Source: a virus. Taken from it: DNA of 64,000 bases. The translations under genes were made by a program, and so were the position numbers. Positions 1 through 64,000 of this stretch are shown piece after piece. The stretch covers positions 1 to 64,000 of IMG/VR virus record IMGVR_UViG_3300021959_007960. One strand, 5' to 3'. A model generated the notes under the pieces. It made no database searches. It was not told the origin of the DNA and saw nothing but the letters and a program-made list of their open reading frames with translations. The number at the start of each line of letters is the position of its first letter. Positions within the stretch are counted from its first letter, which is position 1.

Positions 1-69
1 GATAAAGCCTTATCGTATCACAATCTTGGGCTTGAATACTTGGGTAACTCTTCCGTGCCATGTATTGTA

Positions 70-109
70 AGTATACTATAATTATCGTCATTGTCAATAG
101 TATTCTTTA
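70..109 (-). promoter_or_regulatory. Interlocked sigma28-like and sigma70 promoter
   Basis: Minus strand has TAAAG(109-105)-N15-GACGATAA(89-82) and TTGACA(97-92)-N16-TATACT(75-70). Confidence 0.75.
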
Positions 110-138
110 ATAATAAACAAAAAAAATTGGAGTTCTTT

Positions 139-399
139 TCACTCCTCAAAATCCTCATCTTCAGATCCTTTAAGAATATGATAGCATTCTTCTAATATAT
201 CTTCCGTTTCGAATACCGTTGTTTCATTATCTGCACTTATATAATCCTTACAACCACGTTCGTCAACATATACATAGTTATCTATCAATTCACTTCCTGT
301 TAAATCATTTATAAACATTTCAATCACTGCCTGTTTTCTATTTGATTTGCCAACGTCCAACGCTTGTCGAAATTCACCCGATGCAATATATAGTTTCAT
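139..399 (-). CDS. Hypothetical phage protein
   Basis: 86-aa acidic ORF with an ATGA overlap to the upstream gene and a GGAGG RBS. Confidence 0.7.
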   Translation of the reverse strand: MKLYIASGEFRQALDVGKSNRKQAVIEMFINDLTGSELIDNYVYVDERGCKDYISADNETTVFETEDILEECYHILKGSEDEDFEE

Positions 400-1166
400 A
401 CCGCTGCCTCCTTCTTAAGAATTTTTAGTGCTTCCGCTGCTTTACTACCCTTTGGCTGAACACCGTGAATTAGTAGAGCAAAATCTTGGTTGGCTCTGGT
501 TGGATCACAGGCGTGACTATCGTCATTATCTACTTCTAGACCTAGATCGTCAGCTTCTTGTTGACTGAAAACTACCTTAGCAGATCGTAGACCGTGTTCT
601 GCAATAAGATGATCGTCACGACCACCGTATGATGCAGTCAATACTAGATTAGCAGGCACAAGGTCACGACTACGAACCCAATACGTGAGAGACTTAGTGT
701 AAGCATAGAATAATACGGTAGGATTACGCTGTGCGACTTTGATCCATGCCATGAAATATTTGTGACTGAACATATCGCCGGACACATGAATACGAATGAT
801 ACGGGCATCTTTGGGCAACACTGCACACAATCCGTCTGCCATAGCGTCAGACGTTTCTAGTGCATGAATAGCGTCATGGTTACGCTTGCGACTTTTGTAA
901 GTGTTGGTGAATAAGACTTCTTGACTAGCAGAGAAGCAACGGAATTTTGTATCTGGGCCGTCTTTGATTCTGCGACTACCGTCTGCCTGCTCTTCGGCCT
1001 GAGACTTGCAGTTGAATGCGAAAGGACAGTCTACTCCAGATAATATATCGAAAGAATAAACCTTGGCAGTAGACCGTCCTATCTTCTGGCCTAACCACCG
1101 CTTGAGCGTAGTGGTAGCAAGTTTGTAGAGTTTTTTGAGCTTAGTATTAGCTGCTGAAAATTTCAT
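396..1166 (-). CDS. Gp88-like phage protein
   Basis: CP...C...C cluster plus RIHVSGDMF and FYAYTKS motifs typical of the GP88 family; GGAGA RBS. Confidence 0.7.
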   Translation of the reverse strand: MKFSAANTKLKKLYKLATTTLKRWLGQKIGRSTAKVYSFDILSGVDCPFAFNCKSQAEEQADGSRRIKDGPDTKFRCFSASQEVLFTNTYKSRKRNHDAIHALETSDAMADGLCAVLPKDARIIRIHVSGDMFSHKYFMAWIKVAQRNPTVLFYAYTKSLTYWVRSRDLVPANLVLTASYGGRDDHLIAEHGLRSAKVVFSQQEADDLGLEVDNDDSHACDPTRANQDFALLIHGVQPKGSKAAEALKILKKEAAV

Positions 1167-1202
1167 TGTGGTGTTCTCCGTTGTCTCGTTGCTTGTCTCT
1201 CA

Positions 1203-1242
1203 AGTATACTATATTATCGTCCCCTGTCAAGTAAAAACTATA
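1203..1242 (-). promoter_or_regulatory. Interlocked sigma70 and degenerate sigma28-like promoter
   Basis: TTGACA(1230-1225)-N16-TATACT(1208-1203) and TATAG(1242-1238)-N16-GACGATAA(1221-1214). Confidence 0.7.
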
Positions 1243-1353
1243 GAAAAAATAAAAATATTATTTGGTACAGGTTTTGCTGGCTTCACCAATATCACCCAAA
1301 CCCAGAGGGTTACGTAGTACATTAGAGGGATAAAAACTGGAGTTTTTTATGCT

Positions 1354-1394
1354 AAAAAGAAAACCCCGCCGCCCATTTCTGAGCGACGAGGTTT
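1354..1394 (-). terminator. Rho-independent terminator
   Basis: Minus strand reads AAACCTCGTCGCTCA-GAAA-TGGGCGGCGGGGTTT followed by TCTTTTT, downstream of the 1422-1790 ORF. Confidence 0.8.
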
Positions 1395-1421
1395 GCGACA
1401 CACACCACCACGGAGAGAGTC

Positions 1422-1790
1422 CTAGAGAATGCCAAACAGTGGCTTTCGGCAATTCACTGCACGTTCGCAGTAGAACTGTCGATATTCACCGTCCTGAGTT
1501 TCGCACGTAACCAAGTGATTGGTTCGCTCGAAATCCTTATCATCCCGTCTGTAGTTTGAAGCTCGGTTCATCTGCTCCAACCTATTATCTGTGAGATGCA
1601 CTACTGGTTCGACGACCCGTGCCTTCCAGCGTTTACGTTCTCCATTCAATGGTTGAAGGTACTCGAAATCGTAAACTTGGCCCATCTTAGCTTCACACAA
1701 ACTAGCAGCACTCGAAAATGTTGCAAGATATGCTAGGATAAAACAAACAGACACTGCTACTGCACAACCGATTAAAATCATATCGCTCAT
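1422..1790 (-). CDS. Hypothetical protein with N-terminal transmembrane segment
   Basis: 122 aa with a hydrophobic N-terminus; GGAGA RBS, own promoter and terminator. Confidence 0.7.
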   Translation of the reverse strand: MSDMILIGCAVAVSVCFILAYLATFSSAASLCEAKMGQVYDFEYLQPLNGERKRWKARVVEPVVHLTDNRLEQMNRASNYRRDDKDFERTNHLVTCETQDGEYRQFYCERAVNCRKPLFGIL

Positions 1791-1828
1791 AATTTCTATT
1801 CTCCGAAGTAAAAACCAAACCTAAAAAC

Positions 1829-1857
1829 ATTCTACCATATGCTCAACACCGTGTCAA
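1829..1857 (-). promoter_or_regulatory. sigma70 promoter with extended -10
   Basis: TTGACA-N17-TAGAAT, with TGG immediately before the -10. Confidence 0.7.
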
Positions 1858-2156
1858 GCCTTAATTGTCATTCCATCCTCAAAAGCTGCAATACCATTTA
1901 CATACCATTCCCAATTTTCTTGGCGTACATAAAAAGGACTGAAACGATTGATTCTTTCTTTTGTTGTAGGCGATTTGTGCCCACCATGTCTCAGTGTTAC
2001 GCTATCATCATCATGAATAGTCACAACGTCTGTACTGTACAGCATGAAAGCCACGCTACCATCTGGCTTGATTCTTGCCGTGGTATTGTTGGCTACCTTG
2101 CGTTGCATTCTGTTATTCTTTCCTAAAACCAATTTTGTTGCTTCTGCGTGTGTCAT
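1854..2156 (-). CDS. Conserved phage hypothetical protein
   Basis: 100 aa with a GG..SPTTKERIN motif seen in small phage proteins; AGGAG RBS. Confidence 0.7.
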   Translation of the reverse strand: MTHAEATKLVLGKNNRMQRKVANNTTARIKPDGSVAFMLYSTDVVTIHDDDSVTLRHGGHKSPTTKERINRFSPFYVRQENWEWYVNGIAAFEDGMTIKA

Positions 2157-2177
2157 AAGTATTGTCTCCTACTTGTT

Positions 2178-2213
2178 ATATCGTCATTCTACCAGATAAA
2201 CTTTAGCTGTCAA
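2178..2213 (-). promoter_or_regulatory. Interlocked sigma28-like and sigma70 promoter
   Basis: TAAAG(2205-2201)-N15-GACGATAT(2185-2178) and TTGACA(2213-2208)-N16-TAGAAT(2191-2186). Confidence 0.75.
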
Positions 2214-2272
2214 TAGAAAAAAAAGAAAAAAATATGAAACCCACCCATAATGGGGGTATGAAGTCAAGTTTT

Positions 2273-2291
2273 AAACCCCCCTTTCGGGGGG
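2273..2291 (-). terminator. Putative terminator hairpin
   Basis: CCCCCC-GAAA-GGGGGG-TTT downstream of the 2319-2525 ORF. Confidence 0.55.
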
Positions 2292-2318
2292 AAGGTCTAA
2301 AGACCAAACTCTGTAGGT

Positions 2319-2525
2319 TTAATTTGCCCTTCCATCAGATGTAGGCAAATTGTAAGGATAGTTCCAGTGATAAACGCTATTCCGAAAATTCGCATCGCTT
2401 CCCTCTGTTCCCTCGTCATCATTCACCTCCGTGTGAAATACTGTTTGTGTAACTGACCACATCATAATTATGCCAACTGTATATCCTATTACAATCGACA
2501 GAAAATCTAATTCTATAACATTCAT
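2319..2525 (-). CDS. Small membrane protein
   Basis: 68 aa with an N-terminal hydrophobic helix; overlaps the upstream stop codon. Confidence 0.55.
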   Translation of the reverse strand: MNVIELDFLSIVIGYTVGIIMMWSVTQTVFHTEVNDDEGTEGSDANFRNSVYHWNYPYNLPTSDGRAN

Positions 2526-2752
2526 TCTGCTGTGTACTCCTCATAAGAAAAACTCTGAACGCCTCGACGATATTGCTCCTCTACAATACCTGAAATCGCT
2601 GCTATGTTTTCTTGCCTGTTCTCCGCTGTGCTAAGATCAATTCTAGGCACTGCTACCATTATCGACAAATTATCTTGCTCCTCTCCAGTAATTTCATCAA
2701 TAATATTATTACAATCGTAGTATCGAAAGTTTGGATCCATCGCATTATTCAT
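2522..2752 (-). CDS. Hypothetical protein
   Basis: 76-aa acidic ORF with a GAGGA RBS. Confidence 0.6.
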   Translation of the reverse strand: MNNAMDPNFRYYDCNNIIDEITGEEQDNLSIMVAVPRIDLSTAENRQENIAAISGIVEEQYRRGVQSFSYEEYTAE

Positions 2753-2899
2753 TTCTTAAGTTCCTCACGTAAAGTATATTTCCTGCTACTCTCATTCCGT
2801 CCTGATCATCCAATTCCCAACTATTAACATAATACAGTTGTACCAAACGAGTCGATAGTTTGTCAAGAGTATCGTACAAGCTATCTTGCATCAATTCGT

Positions 2900-3079
2900 T
2901 CATTGTTCATTCCTCCAACGTTGTTGTAATTCCTTAGCACTTGCTCTAATAATATTTTCCCATACTTCTACATCGTCAGTATCTCCTCTCAGCTTGGCTC
3001 CAGGTATTGCTTCTTGACCGGCTTTCAGCCAAGCCTGTATTTCATACGTTTCAAATTCATCAAAGTAGTAATCCATCAT
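2900..3079 (-). CDS. Hypothetical protein
   Basis: Start moved to ATG 3079, which has a GGAG RBS and overlaps the upstream stop. Confidence 0.6.
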   Translation of the reverse strand: MMDYYFDEFETYEIQAWLKAGQEAIPGAKLRGDTDDVEVWENIIRASAKELQQRWRNEQ

Positions 3080-3294
3080 ATGCTCCAATCTTCTGGCATG
3101 TCGTATTGTCCGTGATCCCAATCATCACCACCATAGTAATCTTGCATTTCATCATACATGGTAGGCTGTCCGTCGTCAACATCATCATACAGTACAGATT
3201 CGTACTGATCATCTTCCATCATGTCAACTATATCAAGTCCATCTACAACATCTGTTCGTGAGTCGTAAATATTGTCAGCGGGTGCCATAATCAA
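3076..3294 (-). CDS. Very acidic small protein
   Basis: 72 aa, Asp/Tyr-rich; GGAGA RBS; lies downstream of a dual promoter. Confidence 0.65.
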   Translation of the reverse strand: MIMAPADNIYDSRTDVVDGLDIVDMMEDDQYESVLYDDVDDGQPTMYDEMQDYYGGDDWDHGQYDMPEDWSI

Positions 3295-3323
3295 TTCTCC
3301 AAGTGGTTAAGTGTTATATTCCA

Positions 3324-3363
3324 AGTATACAGGTATTATCGGCATTGTCAAGAAAAATCTTTA
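3324..3363 (-). promoter_or_regulatory. Interlocked sigma28-like and sigma70 promoter
   Basis: TAAAG(3363-3359)-N15-GCCGATAA(3343-3336), a perfect FliA -10, and TTGACA(3351-3346)-N16-TATACT(3329-3324). Confidence 0.8.
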
Positions 3364-3519
3364 CTCTTTTTTCAAGATTGTGTCCAAGTAAATTTCCTCA
3401 GCAGTCATAACGTATCCATACTCACAATTGGGGGTATACACTCCAAAATATACCTTACCATTATCATACCCTTCGAACCCTACCATGATCCCAAATATAG
3501 TGTAGATTGTCAACATCAT
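3361..3519 (-). CDS. Small hypothetical protein, 52 aa (not in the ORF track)
   Basis: Translates as MMLTIYTIFGIMVGFEGYDNGKVYFGVYTPNCEYGYVMTAEEIYLDTILKKE; GGAGA RBS; promoter upstream. Confidence 0.6.
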   Translation of the reverse strand: MMLTIYTIFGIMVGFEGYDNGKVYFGVYTPNCEYGYVMTAEEIYLDTILKKE

Positions 3520-3553
3520 TTTTCTCCGTGTGGTATTGTTTCCTATATATATA

Positions 3554-3581
3554 ATATCGGCTTGTCCAGTTAGTTCCTTTA
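3554..3581 (-). promoter_or_regulatory. sigma28-like promoter
   Basis: TAAAG(3581-3577)-N15-GCCGATAT(3561-3554). Confidence 0.7.
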
Positions 3582-3687
3582 ATGAAATCTATCTTTTTCT
3601 CGCTGGCTTTACCATAATAACCTAACCGGCTAGATTAGCCGGTACAAATTAAATAAACAGGTTTATAAATAGCAAACCGCGTGCCAT

Positions 3688-3984
3688 TCATTCTAAAAAT
3701 GGCGATTCCTCTACGGTGTTTGCGTAGTGATTACATAACGCTTCGATGCGTGCAGTTGATCCTGGTTGACCTACTGGTCTTATCATCTTATCTTTCCCAC
3801 CAATAAACCTATCATCCACCTTACGGCCTGATTTACTTTCCATACTATTAGATAGTAAAACTCTGCGATTGAATTTATGAACCGTTCCATTCTGCTCAAT
3901 ACCTTTCCATATTTGTGTGCATTCATCCCATGCAGCGGATAGGATAGGATACTGCCTCATTAGTTGCTCTGTGTTACTTGACAT
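3688..3984 (-). CDS. Hypothetical protein
   Basis: 98-aa ORF overlapping the upstream gene. Confidence 0.65.
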   Translation of the reverse strand: MSSNTEQLMRQYPILSAAWDECTQIWKGIEQNGTVHKFNRRVLLSNSMESKSGRKVDDRFIGGKDKMIRPVGQPGSTARIEALCNHYANTVEESPFLE

Positions 3985-4327
3985 TGTAATTGTAATCTCC
4001 TGTGTTGTAGTTTCTTATCTCTTGTAGTTTACTCGCTACCTCATGAAAGTCAAGCCATCCGATAACATCTACACAGCCTAAATCGTGATTGATTTGAGTA
4101 TCATAGATGATCTCGTTTGTAGTGTAGGGATCTGTGCCGTGTTGATACTTTAGAATCGCCAGTTCAAAATAACCATGCTGACCACCATAAGTCCCATCAT
4201 GCAGAGCGATACTTGCCCCAAGTCCGTTACTAAAATAGTAGTGCTTAACATATCGACCTTGCTCCTTGTGTGCTTGTGTGTTGAATCGTGTTCCGTTTAA
4301 TTTCAGTGGGTTTACTTTAGTTTTCAT
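3974..4327 (-). CDS. Conserved phage hypothetical protein
   Basis: FSNGLGASI...YGG..GYFELAIL...DVIGWL pattern common in phage early proteins. Confidence 0.7.
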   Translation of the reverse strand: MKTKVNPLKLNGTRFNTQAHKEQGRYVKHYYFSNGLGASIALHDGTYGGQHGYFELAILKYQHGTDPYTTNEIIYDTQINHDLGCVDVIGWLDFHEVASKLQEIRNYNTGDYNYNVK

Positions 4328-4330
4328 TAT

Positions 4331-4504
4331 TTACTCCTCGATGTGTGAAAGTCTGAAGGGAATCAAGACATGGTGTGACACTAATTGTCGAGCCTCTGAT
4401 TCTGTTACGGCTCCGACCTCTCCTAGTTTATCTCCGGTCTGAGCATCTATTACTACCCAAACATTTTTTCTGACTTCTGGCATAATACAATTATTGTGAC
4501 TCAT
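4331..4504 (-). CDS. Hypothetical protein
   Basis: Start moved to ATG 4504, which has a GGAGG RBS and an ATGA overlap. Confidence 0.6.
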   Translation of the reverse strand: MSHNNCIMPEVRKNVWVVIDAQTGDKLGEVGAVTESEARQLVSHHVLIPFRLSHIEE

Positions 4505-5049
4505 ACTGTCACCTCCATTCTTGTTTGTTCTGGATTCCATTCTACTGCTAGCATGTCCTTCCGTGTCATTGACTCATTGAAGTATATGTCATAACCGTGT
4601 TCACGTCCAGTCTTATCGACCTTGTATTTTTTGTTCTTGCAAGCTTCCATAATGTCGCGGTGTGAAACTGTTTTGACTATAACGCCACGCTCTGGATGAA
4701 TGAAGCATAGAAACAGAATGTCGAAACGATCTTTTTTGATGCCGCGAAAATAAAACTGCTTGTTTGTTATTCCGAATACTGCTGACTTGACTTCGGCTTT
4801 TTTGTGGCATCCGCTAACGTACAGCGATATGTCGTGACTTGTATGGCCGCCAGTATGCTCGATCTCACCATCGACACCGAATTTTTTCATGTGGTCAATT
4901 ACCATCAATTCACATGCGACACCCTGATCATGTGACGACATGGTATAAAGTTCGTAGCTCAGTTCGTTATTTTGTAGACTGTATTGGCAACCGTTGCGGG
5001 ACTGTGCTAACTTGTTTTTTGCGATCTGAAGGTCGAGAGTTGTAAACAT
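4501..5049 (-). CDS. Putative PD-(D/E)XK restriction-like endonuclease
   Basis: G...E...HD(x)n-AEVKSA motif followed by FDILFL. Confidence 0.55.
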   Translation of the reverse strand: MFTTLDLQIAKNKLAQSRNGCQYSLQNNELSYELYTMSSHDQGVACELMVIDHMKKFGVDGEIEHTGGHTSHDISLYVSGCHKKAEVKSAVFGITNKQFYFRGIKKDRFDILFLCFIHPERGVIVKTVSHRDIMEACKNKKYKVDKTGREHGYDIYFNESMTRKDMLAVEWNPEQTRMEVTV

Positions 5050-5080
5050 TTTAGGGTTCCTGTGTTGGTGTGATGTTTAG

Positions 5081-5120
5081 AGTCTAAAATAATTATCGAC
5101 AAATTGCAAGCGGTAGTTTA
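5081..5120 (-). promoter_or_regulatory. Interlocked sigma28-like and sigma70 promoter
   Basis: TAAAC(5120-5116)-N15-GTCGATAA(5100-5093) and TTGCAA(5109-5104)-N17-TAGACT(5086-5081). Confidence 0.7.
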
Positions 5121-5306
5121 TCCCGCACCATAAAAATCTAATGATGATTCAAAGTGAACAGCTTCCGAAGATTCGTAGTCAATTCTATCTTCAATGACTT
5201 CGCAATGCTCAAAACATGTTGGGCAAAGGTCAGCGTCGGAGTGAACATATGCTCCACAGCAATCAGAAGTGTAATGGATTTCAAAGTTTTGATTATTGTT
5301 ACTCAT
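5118..5306 (-). CDS. Small Cys-rich putative Zn-binding protein
   Basis: SDCCGA...CPTCFEHC motif; AAGGA RBS. Confidence 0.65.
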   Translation of the reverse strand: MSNNNQNFEIHYTSDCCGAYVHSDADLCPTCFEHCEVIEDRIDYESSEAVHFESSLDFYGAG

Positions 5307-5341
5307 AATTTTTTTCCTTAGTGTTAAGTGTTCTATTTGTT

Positions 5342-5378
5342 ATATCGTCATTTTACAGTAGATACTTTAAGATTGCAA
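5342..5378 (-). promoter_or_regulatory. Interlocked sigma28-like and sigma70 promoter
   Basis: TAAAG(5369-5365)-N15-GACGATAT(5349-5342) and TTGCAA(5378-5373)-N17-TAAAAT(5355-5350). Confidence 0.75.
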
Positions 5379-5409
5379 GGATAATCTTTGGAATTTTCAA
5401 ATATAGTTT

Positions 5410-5476
5410 CATGCCAAACGAGAACAAAATTTATTTTTTTGCAATATAATACCATGCCAAACGATCATAAAATTTT
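5410..5476. repeat. Direct repeat CATGCCAAACGA-N4-AAAATTT, two copies
   Basis: Exact 12-mer at 5410-5421 and 5453-5464, in the strand-switch region. Confidence 0.7.
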
Positions 5477-5650
5477 ACCAGATACACTGTACATACTAGC
5501 ACCACCCCCGGGAGGGGTTTTTCTGTTTTGCCAGACCCCCACGGAGTAGGGGGCAACCGTCGCGGGGGGTATAGACAAAATTGCCACCATAAAATCAATA
5601 TGTAATACCTAAACTATAAGGATTAACATTATGATTCTTCCTTGACTATT

Positions 5651-5657
5651 GGTGTAT
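5651..5657 (+). promoter_or_regulatory. Putative late promoter motif GGTGTAT
   Basis: First copy of a motif that recurs ahead of late genes. Confidence 0.5.
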
Positions 5658-5710
5658 AGTTTCTATTATAGAAATAATACTATTACAATACTATTAGGTA
5701 CGGTATAATT

Positions 5711-5893
5711 ATGAAGCATATTTTTGCATCTTCGTCCCTGTCAGTAACAGGAAACCCACAGAATCAACCAACACAGGAAGAGTTGTCTCTGCCAGATGGC
5801 ATGAGCATCGCGGAGCTATTATTAAATGAAACAGAAACAGAAGACCAAGGAAAAGATGATCCTCAACAAAGTGACAGAGAAACACTTTCTTGA
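5711..5893 (+). CDS. Possible small protein
   Basis: 60-aa acidic ORF at the start of the late arm; weak RBS. Confidence 0.35.
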   Translation: MKHIFASSSLSVTGNPQNQPTQEELSLPDGMSIAELLLNETETEDQGKDDPQQSDRETLS

Positions 5894-6452
5894 GACAATA
5901 GACAAGATCTGCTATAAACTTTTATATAAATTCAGATTCGGATACCACGACATAGAGGACATGAAACAACAGGCATACATTTTTGCCTTGCAAGGATTAG
6001 AAAACTATGACCCCAGCAAACCACTAGAGAATTTCTTATGGACCCACATTCGTAATCGTCTTTTTAATTTTAAAAGAGACAAATACCAAAGGCCAGATAA
6101 ACCTTGTAACACTTGCGAACATTACGACAAAGACTATAGTCAGAGTCGTAGTCAGTGTTTATTATATAGTTGCAAAGTAAATTGTTCTCTTTATAATAAT
6201 TGGTACATTAAAAATAACAATAAGAAAAATTTGATGCAAATATCCCACACTGAAAAAGCAGAATCCATACAGAGCAAACAAAAAGATCTCCTAGAAGGTA
6301 TATCTAATAAAGAAATCCTCAAACAAATAGACCCCGAGATTAAAGTATCCTTACGTAAATATTATCTTATGTTTTTATATGGACAAAAAATCCCGAAAAA
6401 ATATAAACATCTTCTTCTGCAAAACATACAAGAGATTTTAAATCATGAGTAG
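5856..6452 (+). CDS. Phage RNA polymerase sigma-factor-like protein
   Basis: Region-2-like segment DIEDMKQQAYIFALQGLENYDPSKPLENFLWTHIRNRLFNFKR; Cys-rich insert; AAGGA RBS before ATG 5856. Confidence 0.65.
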   Translation: MILNKVTEKHFLETIDKICYKLLYKFRFGYHDIEDMKQQAYIFALQGLENYDPSKPLENFLWTHIRNRLFNFKRDKYQRPDKPCNTCEHYDKDYSQSRSQCLLYSCKVNCSLYNNWYIKNNNKKNLMQISHTEKAESIQSKQKDLLEGISNKEILKQIDPEIKVSLRKYYLMFLYGQKIPKKYKHLLLQNIQEILNHE

Positions 6453-7266
6453 AAAAAGAGGCCAGCTTAGTCTGGAAGAACAACAGTATATCAAAGACAA
6501 TTTTAATACTAGTACTATAGAAGAGATAGCAGAATTTTTAAATCGTAACCCTGCTCCCGTAAAACGATATATTAATGATAATCATTTAATGATTCCTGAT
6601 GACCCTGATGATGACAGTGACTATCTCAAACATAAATTACATAAAAAAACTTTCTGGACTGAAATAGAACGTCAATTCGATAAGGACAGTGGAGAGTTAG
6701 AATATTTTGAAAATACATGGGTAGGTCTTATAAAACAATTTAGAGAAGACGTACTTCCTGCTGAAGAATTACAAATCAAACAATTTATCACCATCGACAT
6801 TCTTATCAATCGTAGTATGAAAGAACGTAAGAGACATATTACAGATACCGAACGTATTCAAAAAATGGTAGACGATCAATATTTAAAATCTGAAGAAACC
6901 CGTGATAATGCTTATCTTACTAATTTAGAAACCCAACTATCATTTGCCCGTAATAGTATAACCAGCTATACAAATGAATATACCAAACTCTTGTCTGAAC
7001 AACAAAAAATAAGTAAAGATCTTAAAGCCACTAGAGAACAGAGAATCAAAAGAATCGAAGATGGTAAGAGTAGTTGGACAGGATTACTACGGATGCTAGA
7101 AGATGAGAAGATTAGGGAGACAGAAGGAAGACAAATGGAAATCATGACTATGAGCGTAAATAAACATTTAAAAGAATTAGAGACTATTCATGTATACCAA
7201 GATAAAACAGCAGACAGTCCTTTTCTTACTCCTGAAAGCGTAGAACAAGATGAATCGACAAGTTGA
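6445..7266 (+). CDS. Putative terminase small subunit or DNA-binding protein
   Basis: N-terminal HTH-like segment (TIEEIAEFLNRNPAPVKRY) plus coiled coil; lies upstream of TerL. Confidence 0.45.
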   Translation: MSRKRGQLSLEEQQYIKDNFNTSTIEEIAEFLNRNPAPVKRYINDNHLMIPDDPDDDSDYLKHKLHKKTFWTEIERQFDKDSGELEYFENTWVGLIKQFREDVLPAEELQIKQFITIDILINRSMKERKRHITDTERIQKMVDDQYLKSEETRDNAYLTNLETQLSFARNSITSYTNEYTKLLSEQQKISKDLKATREQRIKRIEDGKSSWTGLLRMLEDEKIRETEGRQMEIMTMSVNKHLKELETIHVYQDKTADSPFLTPESVEQDESTS

Positions 7267-7519: not shown

Positions 7520-7976
7520 ATATTTTAATATAGTAGTAGATACCAGGGAACAAAAACCTTGGGACTTTAATGATAGTTTTAATATAACCAAAGCTAAATT
7601 AGATACTGGAGATTATAGTATAGAAGGACTAGAACACTTGGTATGTATAGAACGAAAAAGTAGCGTAAATGAAGTTAGTAATAATATTACCGAAAAGAGA
7701 TTTAAAGACGTCTTAGACCGTATGGCAGGATTTCCCCATCCCCATATACTATTTGAATTTGACCTATACGATATATTAAATTTCCCACATAATAGTGGAA
7801 TCCCTCAACGTTTATGGAAAAACCTTCGTATATCTCCCTTATTCCTGCTAAAATATATAACCGAAATAAACACAATATATGGTATACACACACATTTTTG
7901 TGGTAATAGAGAAAATGCACAAGCTATTGCCATTAGTATCATGAAGCGAGTAAATGAAAAACACAATAGAACCTAA
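7509..7976 (+). CDS. ERCC4-domain nuclease
   Basis: VDTREQ, GDY and IERKS motifs. Confidence 0.85.
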   Translation: MKNKYFNIVVDTREQKPWDFNDSFNITKAKLDTGDYSIEGLEHLVCIERKSSVNEVSNNITEKRFKDVLDRMAGFPHPHILFEFDLYDILNFPHNSGIPQRLWKNLRISPLFLLKYITEINTIYGIHTHFCGNRENAQAIAISIMKRVNEKHNRT

Positions 7977-9987
7977 AAAATTTGAAGAAGCGTGGCTAGG
8001 TCTAGGGGATACTAGCAATATATCTATCGACCATAATTGTATGATCGGTCGAAGTAAATATGATATTGAACATCCTGACGCTCACTTATTAAAAATCATG
8101 ACAGATCCTAAATATTTCGGATTTACTGTTAGGTCACTATTTGGAATAGAACTTCATCCTATACAGATTGCTATCTTACAAGAATTTTGGCAGAGACCAT
8201 TTCCTATGTTTATAGCTAGTCGTGGTTTTGGTAAGTCTTTTATACTGGCCATGTATGCTATGTTAAAATGCATGTTTGTTCCTGGTAGCAAGATTGTTAT
8301 TGTAGGTAGTGCATTTAGGCAGAGTAAAATTATATTTGAGTATATGGAAACTCTGTGGCGTAATAGTGATATATTAAGAAGTATTTTTGGGGCTGCTAGT
8401 GATGGACCAAGAAGAGATGTTGATCGTTGTACTCTCAGACTAGGAGACAGCTGGGCGGTTGCTATTCCATTAGGAACAGGAGATAAGATTAGAGGTTTAC
8501 GTGCTCATATTATTATAGCTGACGAATTTGCATCTATTAGTCCAGATATCTATGAGACTGTTGTTTCTGGTTTTGCTGCAGTTAGTGCTAGTCCTATTCA
8601 AAACGTTAAAGCAGAAGCTAAGAAGAAAGCTATGAAGGAAGTTGGTATTTGGACTCCTGAAATGGATAATTTGATGGTAAAGAAAAGCAATCAGGCTATT
8701 ATTAGTGGAACTGCTGATTATAGCTTTAAGCATTTTGCACAGTATTGGCGTAGATATAAAAAAATAATTGAGAGTGAGGGAGATTTACACATTCTGGAAG
8801 ATATATTTGGTGGGCCAGTTCCAGAAAATTTCAATTGGAGAGATTACAGTGTTATCAGAATTCCTTATGAACTTATACCCAAAGGATTCATGGACGATAA
8901 ACAAGTTGCCCGAGCGAAGGCTACTATACACAGTGGTATCTATCAAATGGAATACGCTGCATGTTTCACAAGTGACAGCGAGGGTTTCTTTAAAAGAAGT
9001 CTAATTGAATCTTGTACCTGTTCAGATAAAAAACCAATTCAAGGAATAGACGGAGTCATATCTTTTGACCCTAGCATTAAGGGAGATCCTAATAAGCAAT
9101 ACATTATTGGGGTCGATCCGGCTAGTGAAAAAGATAATTTTAGCATTACCGTGATAGAGCTTAATAAAGACCATCGTAGGTTAGTATATTGTTGGACAAC
9201 AAACAGAGGGAATTTTAGAGATAGACAAAAAACAGGATTGGTAGAAGATCATGACTTTTATAGTTTCTGTGCAAGAAAAATTAGAAACTTGATGAAAAGT
9301 TACAATGTAAAAACTATTGGTGTTGATGCCCAAGGAGGAGGAGTAGCTATTGAGGAAGCATTACATGATCCAAAAAATTTACAAGATGGAGAGGAACTGA
9401 TATGGCCAGTGATTGACTACGATAAAAGTAAACCAACAGATAATCAGGTAGGTTTACATATCTTAGAATTGGTGCAATTTGCCAAAGCCGATTGGGTTTC
9501 GCAGTCTAATCATGGTTTAAGGAAAGATTTAGAAGATAAGAAATTAATTTTTCCTAGATTCGATTCTCTCAGTATAGGGCTTGCTTTAGAAAATGAGGGT
9601 AAGAATATTCTAGAAGCAGATCTGAATCCTTTATATGACAGTTTAAGTGAATGTATTGTAGAGATTGAAGAATTAAAAAATGAGTTGACTACTATAGTCA
9701 TGAGTCAGACTAGCACAGGAGCTTATGCTAGAGATAAGTGGGATACTCCTGATACTAAAGGTGCTCATGGCAAAAAGGGCAAGTTAAGAAAGGATAGGTA
9801 TAGTTCATTATTAATATCTAATATGATAGCTAGAAAACTAGATTTACAACTAGAAGATATTAAGTATAATGTAATAGGTGGATCAACTAGAGATATTGTA
9901 AAGCCTAACAGTGATGAAATGTACCAAGGTCCAGAATGGTTCACCAATAGTGCAAATGATGATATTTATCGGGGAATCAATAAATAA
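7954..9987 (+). CDS. terL: Terminase large subunit
   Basis: Walker A ASRGFGKS, Walker B IIIADE, RNase H-like IGVDPA and C-terminal KDRYS. Confidence 0.92.
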   Translation: MKNTIEPKKFEEAWLGLGDTSNISIDHNCMIGRSKYDIEHPDAHLLKIMTDPKYFGFTVRSLFGIELHPIQIAILQEFWQRPFPMFIASRGFGKSFILAMYAMLKCMFVPGSKIVIVGSAFRQSKIIFEYMETLWRNSDILRSIFGAASDGPRRDVDRCTLRLGDSWAVAIPLGTGDKIRGLRAHIIIADEFASISPDIYETVVSGFAAVSASPIQNVKAEAKKKAMKEVGIWTPEMDNLMVKKSNQAIISGTADYSFKHFAQYWRRYKKIIESEGDLHILEDIFGGPVPENFNWRDYSVIRIPYELIPKGFMDDKQVARAKATIHSGIYQMEYAACFTSDSEGFFKRSLIESCTCSDKKPIQGIDGVISFDPSIKGDPNKQYIIGVDPASEKDNFSITVIELNKDHRRLVYCWTTNRGNFRDRQKTGLVEDHDFYSFCARKIRNLMKSYNVKTIGVDAQGGGVAIEEALHDPKNLQDGEELIWPVIDYDKSKPTDNQVGLHILELVQFAKADWVSQSNHGLRKDLEDKKLIFPRFDSLSIGLALENEGKNILEADLNPLYDSLSECIVEIEELKNELTTIVMSQTSTGAYARDKWDTPDTKGAHGKKGKLRKDRYSSLLISNMIARKLDLQLEDIKYNVIGGSTRDIVKPNSDEMYQGPEWFTNSANDDIYRGINK

Positions 9988-9994
9988 GGTGTAT
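9988..9994 (+). promoter_or_regulatory. Putative late promoter motif GGTGTAT
   Basis: Intergenic, directly upstream of the portal gene. Confidence 0.55.
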
Positions 9995-10037: not shown

Positions 10038-12164
10038 ATGAAAGACAAAACAAACAAACCTGACGAAGCTTTCTGTTTCTGGGGAGACAGCGAAGAGAGC
10101 AAGAAAGAAGCTTTAGATGCTGCTGCTGGTTCTTTAGAGGAATATACTGGTATTCAACACGCCAAAGCAGGCGCTGGAAGGATGACAAACAGGACAGATT
10201 TTTCCAATGTATTACCTAATATTTCTGGTAAGCCTGGATTATCTAGATCTGACTATGATTATTTTAGACCTCAAGAATCTGTTCCAGAGGAAATCAAAGC
10301 AATACTCCGTAGAGCAGATGATATATATCAAAGAGTAGGTTTAGTTAAAAATGTAATTGATCTTATGGGAGACTTTTCTAGTCAAGGCATTACGATCTCT
10401 CATCCAAATAAAAGAATAGAAAGATTTTATAGAAATTGGTTTAAAAAAGCAAACGGAAAGGATAGAAGCGAAAGATTTTTAAATAATCTATATCGTTCTG
10501 GCAATATTGTCGTAACCAGACAAACAGCCAAACTTTCTAATAAGTCTATCCAAAACATGTATAAAGCCAACGCAGCAGATTTTTCAGATACTGATGTTAG
10601 GAATGAGACTTTAGCATTGGGTAAAAAAGAAATCCCTTGGAAATACACGTTTATCGACCCTGTGTATATTGAAATTGCAGCAGGGCCGTTAGCTTCTTTT
10701 GTGGGTGGTAAAAAGGCTTATGGGTTGAAGTTGCCAGCACACCTTAGAAAGATTATTAATTCTCCCAAGAATGATGCTGAAAAATTTATGGTAGCAAAAC
10801 TGCCACCAGAAGTTATTGAAGCAGCCAAGACTCGTAAGCCTTACTACCTTGATCCCAATAAGATTATTGTTAATCACTATAAAAAAGATGATTGGCAAAC
10901 TTGGGCATACCCAATGATTTATTCTATTATGGATGATATTACAGTCTTAGAAAAACTTAAACTTGCAGATATGGCGGCTTTGGATGGTGCTATTTCAAAT
11001 ATTAGAATCTTTAAATTAGGTAATCTAGATCACAAGATTGCTCCTACGAAAGCTGCTGCTTCTAAATTAGCATCTATTTTACAAAATAACGTTGGTGGAG
11101 GTACGATGGATGTTGTATGGGGTCCAGATATAGAACTTCTAGAATCTAATACAAATGTTCATCAATTCTTAGGTGAAGCTAAGTATACACCACATCTTAA
11201 CAATGTTTATGCAGGTTTGGGAATTCCCCCTACGCTTACCGGAACTTACGGAGCAGCAGGAACTACGAACAATTTTATTAGCTTGAAAACTCTTACTCAG
11301 AGACTACAGTATGGTAGAGATGTATTGCAAAAATTTTGGCAGGCAGAGCTAGACATGATACAAAAAGCCATGGGTTTCAGATACTCTGCAAAAGTAGAAT
11401 TCGATAGAATGGACTTGAGTAACGAGGAAGCAGAAAAAGCACTTATTATACAATTGGCTGATAGAAACATTATATCTAATGAATTTATACAGAAGAGATT
11501 TGGTGCTGATCCTGACTTAGAAAATGTTAGAATCAATCGAGAAGATAAGGCAAGAAGTTCAAGCAGAATGACTGAAAAACTTGGTCCATATACATCTACT
11601 AACGATAATTTAAAGAGAGTTGCTTTGCAATTAGGTATAGCTACTCCTAATCAAGTTGGTCTTCCTCTTAATGATAAATTAGACACAGAAGAGACATTGT
11701 TAGAATTAAAAAGTAAATTTGCTCCGAAGCAAAGAAATAAGGGTGCTCCGGGAGAAGGCAGACCTCGTAATTCAAAGGATTCTGAAAAAAGAAAAGAAAA
11801 AGAATTTGCTCCTCAAACTGGTGCTTCTTTAATTATGCATAGTTTGGGGCTTCAGGAAAAGATTGCTGATATAGTAAATCCTGTATTTTTAGAATATTTC
11901 AATAAAAAGAATATGAGAAGTTTATCTCAAGCAGAATATAACGAAACAGATAAGGTTAAAACTTCAGTATTATTTTCTATCAGTCCTTCTGAAATTTTAA
12001 CTGAAGAATTAGTCAAGAACAAGATTGCAGTTTCTCAGAAATCTAATGCTGTATCACAATATGGCAATTTTATCAAACAAGTAAAATCTACTGTAAATAA
12101 AGATTTAACCACAGATGACCATAAGCAATTAAAATCTTATTTTTATTCTATGGTGTATGGTTGA
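10038..12164 (+). CDS. Portal protein
   Basis: 708 aa directly after TerL; portal-like helical organisation (GLGIPPTL, VEFDRMDL); C-terminal GRP motif. Confidence 0.8.
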   Translation: MKDKTNKPDEAFCFWGDSEESKKEALDAAAGSLEEYTGIQHAKAGAGRMTNRTDFSNVLPNISGKPGLSRSDYDYFRPQESVPEEIKAILRRADDIYQRVGLVKNVIDLMGDFSSQGITISHPNKRIERFYRNWFKKANGKDRSERFLNNLYRSGNIVVTRQTAKLSNKSIQNMYKANAADFSDTDVRNETLALGKKEIPWKYTFIDPVYIEIAAGPLASFVGGKKAYGLKLPAHLRKIINSPKNDAEKFMVAKLPPEVIEAAKTRKPYYLDPNKIIVNHYKKDDWQTWAYPMIYSIMDDITVLEKLKLADMAALDGAISNIRIFKLGNLDHKIAPTKAAASKLASILQNNVGGGTMDVVWGPDIELLESNTNVHQFLGEAKYTPHLNNVYAGLGIPPTLTGTYGAAGTTNNFISLKTLTQRLQYGRDVLQKFWQAELDMIQKAMGFRYSAKVEFDRMDLSNEEAEKALIIQLADRNIISNEFIQKRFGADPDLENVRINREDKARSSSRMTEKLGPYTSTNDNLKRVALQLGIATPNQVGLPLNDKLDTEETLLELKSKFAPKQRNKGAPGEGRPRNSKDSEKRKEKEFAPQTGASLIMHSLGLQEKIADIVNPVFLEYFNKKNMRSLSQAEYNETDKVKTSVLFSISPSEILTEELVKNKIAVSQKSNAVSQYGNFIKQVKSTVNKDLTTDDHKQLKSYFYSMVYG

Positions 12165-25095: not shown

Positions 25096-25102
25096 GGTGT
25101 AT
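25096..25102 (+). promoter_or_regulatory. Putative late promoter motif GGTGTAT
   Basis: Intergenic, upstream of the neck gene cluster. Confidence 0.55.
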
Positions 25103-25141
25103 ATAGATTTGATTATATTACTTTAAAAAAAGGGTTTAAAT

Positions 25142-25684
25142 ATGTCATGGCAGCTAGAAATCCCTCTAATTACAAGGGTTTGGATTAACGATTTAACGGA
25201 TTCTCCTACTTATACGGACTATCGAATTCAACAAGTTGTGGCTGTGGCAGCCCAGAATGTCATCAGGGAAGTTAGTTTATCTACAGACTATACAATAGAT
25301 GTGGTCAATTTATCAATTACTCCTGATCCAGCAGTAACAGCGACTAGAGATAATGACTTTATAGCTTTTACAGCGCTTAAAAGTGCTTGTATTTTAGATC
25401 AAAGTACATTTAGAACTAAAGCTGTAAACGAAGGTATTAAAACAAATTTAGCCTCTGCCAGTATACAAGTACAAGGAAATTTAAGAGGATATAAAGTGTT
25501 GTTAGATCAAGGTCCTTGTGCTATATATGAAAAACTCCGTACAGAGTTTGAAATTGGTAATCCTAATATTTGTGAGGCTGTTCTAAGTCCATTTGTTGGT
25601 AATGATTTTGATCCTAGAAATACTAGCAACGCTATGGGAGATTTTCATCGTAACGGTTATTACATAGACAAATTTTATAGTTAG
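25142..25684 (+). CDS. Putative head-tail adaptor
   Basis: R..I.D....Y.D..I N-terminal pattern; gene position. Confidence 0.5.
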   Translation: MSWQLEIPLITRVWINDLTDSPTYTDYRIQQVVAVAAQNVIREVSLSTDYTIDVVNLSITPDPAVTATRDNDFIAFTALKSACILDQSTFRTKAVNEGIKTNLASASIQVQGNLRGYKVLLDQGPCAIYEKLRTEFEIGNPNICEAVLSPFVGNDFDPRNTSNAMGDFHRNGYYIDKFYS

Positions 25685-25692
25685 GTGATATT

Positions 25693-26127
25693 ATGGCTTT
25701 TTGTGTCACAAATGTTAATGCTATTTCTTTAGTAGATGATTCTATAGGTGGTTCAACTTGTTTGACATCTACATCTAATAATATATCTATAGTAAGAGGA
25801 GCTACCTTTAATCTTATATTTGATTTACAAAATAATACTACAGATAGTCAAGGAGTGGTTACTACAGCAGCAGCAGATTTGTCAGGATATTCTATTAATG
25901 CTGTTATTAAAGAATCTTCTACTAGTACTAACGAACTGTTATTTGCATCTACTCAAAATAGGATGATAAGTATAGATTTTACTAACGCTAGGGCAACTTT
26001 AAGCATTCCTGTAAAAGAGACATCCAGATTACCTGTAGGGACTAAATATTATTTTATAAGATTAGTTGCTTCTAATGGAAATACACAAAAAATTATTCAA
26101 GGTATTGCTACAGTATCGGATACTTAA
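25693..26127 (+). CDS. Virion structural protein (BppU-N-like)
   Basis: ISIVRGATF...DLSGYS...KIIQGIATV; paralog of 15376-15777. Confidence 0.55.
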   Translation: MAFCVTNVNAISLVDDSIGGSTCLTSTSNNISIVRGATFNLIFDLQNNTTDSQGVVTTAAADLSGYSINAVIKESSTSTNELLFASTQNRMISIDFTNARATLSIPVKETSRLPVGTKYYFIRLVASNGNTQKIIQGIATVSDT

Positions 26128-28245: not shown

Positions 28246-28252
28246 GGTGTAT
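28246..28252 (+). promoter_or_regulatory. Putative late promoter motif GGTGTAT
   Basis: Intergenic, upstream of the major tail protein gene. Confidence 0.55.
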
Positions 28253-49800: not shown

Positions 49801-52800
49801 AGCTCTTGATCACGAAACTACAACAGTCATGACCGGTGTAATTACTGGAGTAGACCCCTATATTGGGGGAGTGCCTTTTGTTGATACTTTCTTATTGACT
49901 ATTAATGATGTTAATGAACCTCCTACAGATATAACTTTAAACCCATCTAGCGGTAAAATTGCATCTAACTTTGATCTAGCAACACAAGATTACCCTGCTG
50001 CAACAATATCTTTGAGTGATGTTGATGACTCTCCGTTCGATAATAACGATATAGACATAGCAGCAGGAATTAATAAACAATATTTTAAGATTAGTGATGA
50101 TAAATTGTCTTTACTTGTAAAAGCCGGAAGTGTCTTACAGCCTAATACAGATTATACAGTAACAGTTCTTGCAAAAAGCACAGGAACTACAGAATATACA
50201 GCAGCAAAAAGCTTTACCTTAAATGTTGCTGGACATAGTCCTATTAGTTTAAATCTATTTAATACGACTGCTACAGTAAAAGAAAATATTCCTTCCAATC
50301 TCTTACCGACCTTGACTACTTTTGATTTAACAGATCCAGACGGAGGAACAGATAATGAGGTAATTATTACAGGTATTGACTCTACATTTTTTAATGTTTC
50401 TTATAATGCTGCGACTAACGCTGGCACTTTAAGTGTAGCTAGTGGTTATGTTTTTGACTATGAAACTAGGAATAGTTATACTGGATTTTTAGTAGGTAGA
50501 ATAATTGGTACTACTGCTCCTATTGTTAGAGGTGTTTTTACTCTTAATATTGAAGATGTGTTAGAGCCTAGCGGTATTATTTTTACGCCTTCTGCTAGAA
50601 CAATAAATGAAACTTCCTCTACAGTTGAAACATTTCTTAGTACTCTTACTATTCAAGATCAAGATAATTTTGCTGGAGATGATTTAGTTATTACCAATCT
50701 AGCTTTTACAACAGGTGGAGTTGTAGGAGATTTTCGTGGTGCATTAGATCCTTTTTGGGTTTTTGATAATAGTACAACTGATCCAGATTTAAAAGTATTA
50801 GCAGATAGAGCACTAGATTTTGAAACTCAAAACCAATATTTTATAGTAGCCTCTGGACATCCTAGTAGTAGTCCAGCAACTAAATTAGGAGGTCAATTTA
50901 CTTTAAGTATTAATGATATGGACGAAGCCCCTACTGTTAGCTTACAACCTACTGGGACATCTATTAATGAAACTACAGACACTAGTTTGGGTAGATTTAA
51001 AGTTGCTGATATTTACGTACAAGATGAAACACAGTCTGAAATACAACTAAGTCTTGCGGGTATTGATGGAAATAAGTTTACCATAGTTCCTTCTTCTGTT
51101 ATTACAGATAATCCTACTGAAAGCGTTCTTGTAGGATCATTATTTTTTAATAGTGGTGTTCAATTAGATTACAACACTAAGCCCTTTTACGATGCTGTTG
51201 TAGTAGCAAAAGATCTCGATGCGTTTAGTCCTACGAATGGCTTAGCTTTAAGTGGAACCGCTGATTTTAGACTTGCTATTAATGATGTCCCAACTTGTAC
51301 TATAAATGTAGAAGGTTCTTCTACGGATGTATTATGTCCATTAGATACAGATGGTAGTGTCTCATTAAATATAACTTATACTGGTGATGGGGCTAGTATT
51401 TGTTCTATAGATAAGCCTTTATCAGTGTCTTGGCAAAATCTTCCTACTGATGCGGATACCTCTGTTAATGGTTTTTTTGTTAATGGATTAGGCACTGGGA
51501 CATATACTGCTAATATTTTAGGTGGATCAATTCCTATTACATCAGTACAATATCAAGTTAATAGTCCTACACCTATGAGTATTACTCAAGTAGTTCTTAA
51601 CAATGAGCCTTGTGCATCAGAAGGTTCAATACACATAGGCTTTACTGGCGGGCAACCTCCTTATATTGTATCTTATGGAACTCAAAGTGTAATTCTTCCT
51701 TCTGGTTCTGGCTTTGTAGGTAAAATACCTGTGACTGTACAGAGTTCGGGAAATGTTTCCGTACGAGATGCTAATAATTGTTTGGCCAGTGGATCTAATT
51801 TCACATTTAATTTTCCTAATGCTAATCCTCAATATAATATCATTAGTAAAACCCCTCCTGCTATACACGATAGCTTTTTACAAGACTATAAGTTTACATT
51901 ATTATTTGGTGAAGGTCCTCATAGAATTAATATATATAGTAGCACAACAGGAGAAAAAGGTAATTTAATTACAAGTATAGACGAGTATGACACTACTGTA
52001 ATAGAGTCTCTAAAACAACCCGGTAGTGAAATTTTTGATAGCTCTGGCAATCAAATAGGCATACAACTATCTCAAGACTTGAATTCAAATCCTATAGAGT
52101 ATAGCTATGATATAGGTAGTCAAATATATCCTGGTTCATATGTTTTTGAATTTGTAAATCAAGATAATTGTACTTTTTTAACAGATGTACAAACCGCAGA
52201 AAATATAATCCCCCTTTCTGCTGAATTGATAACAGTTAATGATTTTCCTTTAGACATAGGCACACAAGTTTTATCTCAGCCAATACTAGATACATTATTT
52301 ATTCCTTATAGAATGTTAATTAGTGATAGTGAGGTATTAAGTTATATTTCTAATATTACAGAACGAAGCGATATACGATTGGAAATTGGTAATCAAATAT
52401 TTGATAGAAAAGCTATCTATGGAAGTGTTAATTGTGATACGCACAGTTTAGTTAATATTAAGTTTTTTGGTTTTAAAAATAATGAATGGTTCTTTACCAT
52501 ACCTTTTTATAAGGGTTTTGATATATCTGATACTAGCGAGGTGGATATCCTTAATGAAAATATATCATTGGTTATTTCAGACAGTAAAAAAATTAAAATA
52601 GATAAAGAATATAACAATAATGTTGGAACAATAAAATTATTAAAAGGGTCTGTCCTTACAACAGATTTAAATTTATCTCAATTTAAAAACGATAAAGACA
52701 TAACCTTAAGTCGTCTTTTGTCAGATGGTACTTTTGAAGAACTTGCTATGGCTACTGTAGGAGATAAGGTTTACCTACAAAATAAACATATAGCAGGTAG

Positions 52801-58625: not shown

Positions 58626-58927
58626 TTATACCATCCCCTATTTGGCATATATTCTCCCTTATCGTCTTTACGCTTAGGGAACAGCGTACCACCCTTCTTG
58701 TGTTGACCAAAAGCAAGTGTGGCTCCACAGTCCATACATCGCAATTCATAATATTCATTGTCTTCTACAACTCTTACTACAAATTTAATATTTTCAGATC
58801 CACACATTCCACATTTCGTTTCTCCAAAAATTTCTTGTATAGAGGCAAGCTCTTTAAATATTTCTTTTTGGCCTTCGCCTTCAACTTCAAATTGTAATTT
58901 ATCACTAACTTTATATGACGCTCTCAT
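58610..58927 (-). CDS. Zn-ribbon protein
   Basis: CGMCGS...CMDCGA. Confidence 0.7.
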   Translation of the reverse strand: MRASYKVSDKLQFEVEGEGQKEIFKELASIQEIFGETKCGMCGSENIKFVVRVVEDNEYYELRCMDCGATLAFGQHKKGGTLFPKRKDDKGEYMPNRGWYKWQGK

Positions 58928-60752: not shown

Positions 60753-60756
60753 ATTT

Positions 60757-63436: not shown

Positions 63437-63438
63437 TC

Positions 63439-63999: not shown

Positions 64000-64000
64000 C

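Follow-up and report, generated by a model that had tools for sequence, protein, structure and literature searches.

A candidate sigma-28-type promoter motif interleaved with sigma-70 promoters in the early region of an uncultured phage

Seven sites upstream of the early genes

The DNA analysed here, referred to as the window, is the stretch of 64,000 nucleotides (nt) that makes up positions 1 to 64,000 of IMG/VR virus record IMGVR_UViG_3300021959_007960. It has a G+C content of 35.7% and a phage-like gene organisation: the minus strand carries small early genes from ~5700 down to 1, the plus strand has a long structural arm from 5826 to 57573, and minus-strand genes resume from 57579 to 64000. 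The subject of this report is a bipartite motif ahead of the early genes, TAAAG followed at a fixed distance by G-N-CGATA-(A/T), which resembles the promoters of flagellar (sigma-28-type) sigma factors. Relatives were recovered with the sigma-like protein encoded at 5826-6452 as query, giving 40 IMG/VR loci (43-96% identity); five whole IMG/VR records of 96-166 kilobases (kb), G001 to G005, were compared, of which G004 is complete. A search of 50,697 deposited phage genomes gave neither a DNA match to the window nor a match to its sigma.

An earlier note on this DNA had described seven minus-strand intergenic sites carrying a TAAAG-like box and G-N-CGATA-(A/T). All seven are present where it placed them, and both boxes were found at each. 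The upstream box is an exact TAAAG at five of the seven, the others being TAAAC at 5116-5120 and TATAG at 1238-1242. The downstream box, which has the invariant CGA of the sigma-28 -10 element, reads, from site 1 to site 7, GACGATAA, GACGATAA, GACGATAT, GCCGATAA, GCCGATAT, GTCGATAA and GACGATAT. The gap between the pentamer and the G is 15 nt at six sites and 16 nt at 1214-1242, in agreement with the claim of 15 nt in six of seven. The sigma-70-type element TTG(A/C)(C/A)A-N16/17-TAnnnT was likewise recovered at the six sites for which it had been claimed. In an independent scan for hexamers of the TTGACA-N16-18-TATAAT type, four of these promoters (97-70, 1230-1203, 2213-2186 and 3351-3324) matched the consensus at 11 of 12 positions and ranked among the top five.

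The two elements interlock. In register A (four sites) the sigma-70 -35 hexamer lies within the motif spacer, and in register B (two sites, 2178-2213 and 5342-5378) the -10 hexamer does, with GACGATAT directly abutting it. The description of these arrangements as two fixed geometries holds for the window but not for the family, in which the -35 starts 8-9 nt before or 6-14 nt after TAAAG. At 3363 and 5120 the TAA of the box is, as had been noticed, also the stop codon of the open reading frames (ORFs) 3361-3519 and 5118-5306. The sites are not a product of chance: allowing at most one mismatch, the window holds 13 matches to the pattern against 5.2 +/- 2.1 in shuffled sequence, and none of 100 shuffles reached 13. 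The five exact matches in the window are all on the minus strand and all within 83-5369.

Site 1 (70-109; minus strand, like all those that follow) is a putative dual promoter in register A, with TAAAG at 105-109, GACGATAA at 82-89, TTGACA at 92-97 and TATACT at 70-75; a near-identical copy is found in G004. Site 2 (1203-1242), ahead of the GP88-family gene 396-1166, has the same register, with the degenerate TATAG at 1238-1242, the 16-nt gap, GACGATAA at 1214-1221, TTGACA at 1225-1230 and TATACT at 1203-1208. Site 3 (2178-2213) is in register B: TTGACA lies at 2208-2213, TAAAG at 2201-2205 inside the sigma-70 spacer, TAGAAT at 2186-2191 and GACGATAT at 2178-2185. It precedes gene 1854-2156 (Kyano_Gp96 family), its presumed target, and its arrangement is found again in all five whole records. 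Site 4 (3324-3363) returns to register A, with TAAAG at 3359-3363, GCCGATAA at 3336-3343, TTGACA at 3346-3351 and TATACT at 3324-3329. Site 5 (3554-3581), ahead of gene 3361-3519, has TAAAG at 3577-3581 and GCCGATAT at 3554-3561 and stands alone, the consensus scan finding no sigma-70 promoter of at least 9 of 12 matches there. Site 6 (5081-5120), in register A with TAAAC at 5116-5120, GTCGATAA at 5093-5100, TTGCAA at 5104-5109 and TAGACT at 5081-5086, is kept in relative L001 and presumably drives gene 4501-5049. Site 7 (5342-5378), in register B with TTGCAA at 5373-5378, TAAAG at 5365-5369, TAAAAT at 5350-5355 and GACGATAT at 5342-5349, is the first promoter of the early arm and presumably drives gene 5118-5306.

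A sigma-70-only promoter, TTGACA-N17-TAGAAT at 1829-1857 (minus, 11 of 12 matches, conserved in G004), provides an internal control: it is strong yet lacks the second motif, which is therefore not part of every early promoter. An intrinsic-terminator-like hairpin at 1361-1394 (minus) closes the unit just upstream of the promoter at 1203-1242, and terminator-like hairpins at 2240-2258 and 129-145 also precede promoters, so that the early region appears to be built of terminator-promoter modules.

Transcription starts were computed from the geometry of the sites, following the numbering of PMC12784957 for those of sigma-28 type. The predicted sigma-28-type starts are at ~74, 1206, 2170, 3328, 3546, 5085 and 5334, and the sigma-70 starts at ~63, 1196, 2179, 3317, 5074 and 5343. 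At register A sites the sigma-28-type start would thus lie 10-11 nt upstream of its partner, and at register B sites 9 nt downstream of it, within the offset of 8-14 nt that the earlier note expected. Each predicted start falls in the -10 box of the other promoter, so that binding of one holoenzyme would preclude binding of the other.

The first 69 transcribed bases after the site 1 promoter (window 1-69, minus) are identical in G004, whose sigma is ~51% identical to that of the window. The G004 counterpart (L052:11125-11468, minus) continues for ~330 nt without a long ORF up to the next promoter. A 41-codon frame begins at the predicted sigma-70 start, but G002 does not have its ATG. Rfam gave no match in this RNA-like region of G004 or in window 5300-5900, and the folding energy of the G004 region is unremarkable (z = -1.3). 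Window 1-69 may be part of a leader or non-coding RNA that is conserved and extends past the start of the window.

Conservation across the phage family

In four of the five records examined for it, every exact TAAAG-N17-CGATA is on the early-gene strand (strand counts 6/0, 4/0, 0/8 and 5/0); G003 has none, and the pattern read backwards gives 0-1 matches per record. When the distance between the boxes was varied in the six genomes (the window and the five whole records), counts of TAAAG-N-CGATA peaked at N = 17 and 18 alone and on the early strand alone. The N17/N18 counts were 5/0 in the window, 6/3 in G001, 4/7 in G002, 0/4 in G003, 8/9 in G004 and 5/1 in G005, and spacings of 12-16 and 19-23 yielded 0-3 per genome. 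The same two spacings recurred in 46 further loci with the upstream box relaxed to T[ACG]AAG, where N17 and N18 were found 30 and 44 times on the early strand against 2 and 3 times on the other. Starting from the downstream box gave the same strand bias: among 671 early-strand CGATA, an exact TAAAG stands at the motif offset in 52 and TCAAG in 15, the figures for 512 other-strand CGATA being 0 and 1.

An unbiased 5-mer check upstream of crude gene calls in the six genomes ranked GTGTA, TGACA, TTGAC and CGATA at the top, followed by GGTGT and the ribosome-binding site; CGATA was seen 65 times against 24 expected, and 18 times on the reverse strand. Positions that played no part in finding the sites are also constrained. 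A G stands two bases before CGATA in 86% of sites and a C before TAAAG in 48%, and the base after CGATA is A or T in 40 of 42 sites, with no C at any. At the second base of the -10 box, C accounts for 43%, A for 36% and T for 21%. We considered CGATAAT as a sigma-70 -10 hexamer and rejected it, the last T being unconserved. Across the family, then, the motif is an early-strand element, found mostly in the early region and absent from the late arm, and TAAAG-N17/18-CGATA on one strand can serve as a sequence signature for the early regions of these phages.

Relation to the sigma-70 boxes

For 71 family sites the start of the best -35 hexamer was measured from the start of TAAAG. It falls at -9 or -8 in 13 sites (register B), at +12 to +14 in 33 (register A) and at +6 to +11 in eight. 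The sigma-70 box thus takes about nine offsets in three clusters, whereas the distance from TAAAG to CGATA is always 17 or 18. At 17 of the 71 sites no strict sigma-70 partner is present; several of these have TTGCAA, which leaves ~10 sites that truly stand alone. In one orthologous set (window 3581, G001 18642, G002 66461 and G004 74689) TAAAG and G.CGATA are the sole invariant promoter columns, and the would-be -35 differs from one member to the next (TGGACA, TAAAGG, GTGGAT, TTGACA). In relative L016, TAAAGTTT-N12-GCCGATA precedes a ribosome-binding site. The motif is missing from many sigma-70 promoters that are just as strong.

Sigma factors read DNA as two halves at a fixed distance. Since the sigma-70 boxes shift, the internal spacing of the motif is fixed and its boxes are the only invariant ones in the orthologous set, the sequence comparisons identify TAAAG/CGATA as a separate, bipartite, promoter-like signal whose halves are read together. 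The proposal that two sigma factors read the same early units stands to this extent: two overlapping and independently constrained promoter-type signals head those units, and the second fits the FliA/SigD consensus in both boxes.

Resemblance to sigma-28 promoters

Class 3 flagellar promoters are read by sigma-28, known as FliA in Escherichia coli, Salmonella and Pseudomonas, SigD in Bacillus and WhiG in Streptomyces. The phage motif shares with them a (C)TAAAG -35 element, a G-x-CGATA-(A/T) -10 element with an invariant CGA core, a bipartite and oriented layout, a narrow spacer tolerance and the lack of a conserved T at -7. It differs in its gap of 15-16 nt, in its free second -10 base, and in heading early phage genes, where it mostly overlaps sigma-70 promoters.

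In the Pseudomonas fliC promoter the two elements are TCTAAAG (-36 to -30) and GCCGATAA (-15 to -8); a single base, the A at -11, is flipped out, and -7 goes unread (PMC12784957). The phage logo has nothing conserved at the equivalent of -7. The earlier note had taken the phage spacing to be canonical, which it is not: the gap between TAAAG and GCCGATAA is 14 nt both in Pseudomonas fliC and in the E. coli consensus (PMC12784957), and the phage gap is 15 or 16 nt. Expressed between the boxes, the canonical distance is TAAAG-N16-CGATA, a form almost absent here, where N is 17 or 18. A pattern with canonical spacing, TAAA-N15-17-CGATA, matched none of the seven window sites, which shows that the phage spacer is the longer of the two. 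Spacer length is reported not to be conserved among sigma-28 promoters (PMC12784957). The FliA attack-phase consensus of Bdellovibrio bacteriovorus, TTAAG-N16-CCGATA, is based on mapped transcription start sites and accounts for 92 of 140 of them (PMC3627812); its box-to-box distance is that of the phage N17 form. In Bdellovibrio, sigma-28 is a global "dispersal-state" sigma with a reach beyond flagella, a host physiology in which promoters of this sort would benefit a phage. The Bdellovibrio promoters are cellular, are not interleaved with sigma-70 boxes and have TTAAG in place of TAAAG, and the likeness concerns promoter sequence; it does not imply that the phage infects such a host.

The phage sigma factor and the GGTGTAW class

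The structural arm is headed by a gene for a sigma-70-family protein of 208 amino acids (5826-6452, plus) that comprises a sigma-2 domain, a Cys4 insertion and short C-terminal helices. Pfam Sigma70_r2 matched it at 29.3 bits (cut-off 24), and no other family passed. An alignment of 19 relatives shows that region 2 is conserved, that C94, C97, C111 and C120 are invariant and that the C-terminal part is short. In the AlphaFold model (predicted local distance difference test, pLDDT, 72.5) the C-terminus is made of three short helices instead of the four-helix sigma-4 domain, and the model superposes well on known sigmas over sigma-2 alone. Foldseek returned weak matches, none at E <= 0.001, and those that are named are overwhelmingly sigma factors. 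We found no sigma-3 domain, no full sigma-4 helix-turn-helix and no paralogue of this protein. The cysteines lie between sigma-2 and the C-terminal helices and have the appearance of a zinc-ribbon-like insertion, which is not known from standard sigma factors. Adjoining the sigma gene is a gene for a winged-helix-like protein (6445-7266; weak matches only).

The earlier note had suggested checking the phage for a sigma-28 homologue. The FliA/WhiG model TIGR02479, with its cut-off of 189.6 bits, gave at most trace matches in five related records and none in complete G004, where no FliA/WhiG-family gene was found. Against the conserved sigma it scored ~11 bits (E ~0.02) over region 2 alone. A score of 24 bits was obtained with an extra sigma of 200 amino acids and strong region 4 that is encoded in G001 (L044:949-1551, or G001 60949-61551) and also in seven other large IMG/VR phages. 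This extra sigma is weakly FliA/WhiG-like in regions 3-4, and in G001 and L084 a dual promoter bearing the motif lies ahead of its gene. The window, G002, G003, G005 and complete G004, all rich in sites, lack this extra sigma, which was rejected as a family-wide reader on that ground.

The conserved sigma has a candidate target of its own. Of all permutations of its letters, GGTGTAW is the one most enriched in intergenic DNA in the six genomes (31%, the median being 8%), and GTGTA heads the list of 5-mers upstream of genes. On the plus strand of the window, GGTGTAT lies at 5651-5657 ahead of the sigma gene, in the spacer of TTGACT-N16-TATTAT, a sigma-70-like promoter at 5642-5669; no TAAAG/CGATA motif is present upstream of this gene. 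Other copies are at 9988-9994, in the short gap before the portal gene, at 12152-12158 before the gene starting at 12180, and at 25096-25102 and 28246-28252 before structural genes starting at 25142 and 28299. No -35 box accompanies GGTGTAW, as would suit a sigma that lacks a complete sigma-4 domain, and the motif is likely, judging from these sequence features, to be a -10-element-only promoter class read by the phage sigma. It was rejected as an extended -10 element, its TG directly abutting the hexamer.

T4 gp55 reads late promoters that have a -10 element only, and SPO1 gp28 and gp33/34 are likewise phage-encoded sigmas. The present phages resemble these in being large and lytic, with several promoter classes and a sigma of their own, and the GGTGTAW class recalls a gp55-type promoter. 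The TAAAG/CGATA motif, in contrast, copies a host alternative-sigma consensus and overlaps early sigma-70 promoters rather than replacing them later.

Discussion

Phage early promoters are normally thought to use the host housekeeping sigma only. For TAAAG-N15/16-G-N-CGATA-(A/T) we infer a promoter of sigma-28 (FliA/SigD/WhiG) specificity, most likely read by a sigma-28-type factor of the host, and give this an even chance. Host sigma-28 is the most economical reader because the one conserved sigma of the phage is not FliA-like and has a candidate motif of its own; the most economical assignment would then be sigma-70 for TTGACA/TATAAT, the phage sigma for GGTGTAW and a host sigma-28-type factor for TAAAG/CGATA. 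On this assignment a sigma-28-type element would have been written into, or placed beside, strong sigma-70 early promoters. Two forms of host RNA polymerase would start the same early unit at the dual sites, one to the exclusion of the other, from starts 9-11 nt apart, and at a minority of sites the sigma-28-type element would be the only promoter. Early genes could thus be expressed both in the housekeeping and in the motile or dispersal state of the infected cell, and the atypical phage sigma would serve middle and late genes through the GGTGTAW class.

The reader might instead be encoded by the phage: the 208-amino-acid sigma, or an unrecognised factor converged on sigma-28 specificity, would use the motif as a middle promoter that keeps "early" units on after displacement of sigma-70. 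The 208-amino-acid sigma is present in every relative recovered, though the relatives were found by that sigma; phage sigmas are often too divergent to classify; and in G001 and a few other phages there is an extra sigma, strong in region 4, whose own gene has a motif-bearing promoter. We nonetheless think such a reader unlikely, and the earlier note's version of it, a sigma-28-like factor of the phage, has lost ground. The conserved sigma has no sigma-3 domain and has three short helices where the sigma-4 helix-turn-helix should be, and the late arm and the region upstream of the sigma gene have GGTGTAT in place of the motif. If the sigma read TAAAG/CGATA, GGTGTAW would be left without a reader, and the extra sigma is missing from the window and four of the whole records, which have many sites. 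Less probable again is an operator, at which a phage or host DNA-binding protein would shut off or time the early promoters. In both main registers the element overlaps the footprint of sigma-70 polymerase, so that a bound protein would occlude it; the element is on the early-gene strand only and mostly in the early region, and a winged-helix-like protein (weak matches) is encoded beside the sigma gene. An operator would, however, be expected to show symmetry, and TAAAG and CGATA are neither identical nor reverse complements, form neither a dyad nor a direct repeat, and are all in one orientation that strictly follows transcription. The match to a sigma consensus in boxes, order and approximate spacing would then be a coincidence, and the stand-alone sites behind terminator-like hairpins would leave the next gene with no other promoter.

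That the boxes have no second reader and tune the strength of a single composite sigma-70 promoter as its auxiliary parts, one an upstream element and the other an element of the spacer or discriminator, we consider very improbable. In favour of this are the close interleaving of most sites with near-consensus sigma-70 boxes and the A-rich upstream regions, but against the sigma-70 boxes the motif shifts by over 20 base pairs at fixed internal spacing, some sites have no sigma-70 boxes, equally strong promoters such as 1829-1857 do without the motif, and the last-position T of a -10 hexamer is not conserved after CGATA.

Several points weigh against a host sigma-28 as reader. The motif has a spacer that exceeds by 1-2 nt that of the sigma-28 promoters studied best, those of E. 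coli and Pseudomonas, and a -10 box with a variable second base. G001 has a full-length extra sigma, and other phage proteins of this kind could have gone unrecognised; the C-terminal region of the conserved sigma might itself contact a -35 box. Finally, the host may have no sigma-28.

As to the host lineage, G001 and G004 encode a DUF1559 prepilin-like protein and a DUF1501 protein next to a PSCyt/PSD1-type gene (G001 39545-40375 and 51839-53008; G004 25141-25971 and 51671-52861), and the nearest Atlas clusters to the DUF1559 protein of the relatives are from Planctomycetota. The G001 DUF1501 protein has no close cellular relative in GTDB genomes, and the database homologues closest to it, to as low as 61% identity, all come from phages. 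Genes of Planctomycetota type are the sole lead to a host lineage, and a lead only. The phage sigma is also found on six contigs of metagenome-assembled genomes (MAGs) assigned to Flavobacteriales, Alphaproteobacteria, Bathyarchaeia, Thermoplasmatales and an unclassified bacterium; this taxonomy is so scattered that we regard the assignments as binning noise. DUF1559 was not found in the five of these MAGs that were searched. The papers searched gave no link between FliA and planctomycete swarmer cells.

Host sigma-28 as reader has a biological corollary, which we advance more tentatively, as somewhat less than an even bet: that a whole family of abundant, uncultured aquatic phages of 150-165 kb starts its early genes from the motility or dispersal sigma-28 of the host as well as from sigma-70. 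Promoter choice would then allow the phage to launch in the swimming cells of a host that is dimorphic or predatory, or to sense that cell type, planctomycete swarmers and attack-phase predators being examples. A dimorphic planctomycete, or a predator with a FliA-run free-swimming stage, would make biological sense of the design; both are hypothetical hosts. If a flagellar-type sigma also starts early genes, the success of infection would depend on whether the host is motile or sessile, which would bear on host control by these phages, very abundant in lakes and the ocean. Our literature search, which was not exhaustive, found no precedent for phage promoters dependent on FliA or sigma-28; an early programme tied to a flagellar sigma factor would be the first of its kind in a phage. 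The three promoter classes, sigma-70, sigma-28-type and GGTGTAW, also supply a provisional promoter map for a phage group without a cultured member.

Additional features of the window and its relatives

Within the structural arm, the terminase (7954-9987) shows just 25% identity to those of Bacillus Basilisk-like phages. Early-gene products of the window gave no match to an anti-sigma or regulator. The sigma-terminase(-portal) block occurs twice in G001 (L041-L048), at both ends of the record, 94% and ~70% identical to the window. Because of these two copies G001 is probably a chimeric or concatenated assembly, despite being rated 100% complete by CheckV; a second region-2 match in G001 was rejected as a separate sigma, being the other copy of the same block.

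G004 has a transfer-messenger RNA (tmRNA) at L050:18534-18873 with the tag ADTSVLALAA, which could aid identification of the host, and four tRNAs (L050/L052): Leu-TAA, Lys-TTT, Ile-TAT and Arg-TCT. The window, unlike G004, is without tRNA or tmRNA genes.

The divergent gap between the early and late arms has further features. A direct repeat, TCGTTTGGCATG, lies at 5410-5421 and 5453-5464 (minus), the copies 43 nt apart and each followed by an AT-rich, TATAT-like stretch; the spacing misfits sigma-54. G+C-rich hairpins occupy 5490-5575, one of which (5504-5518, plus strand) resembles a terminator and has a T run after it, and this region could be a small RNA or a bidirectional terminator.

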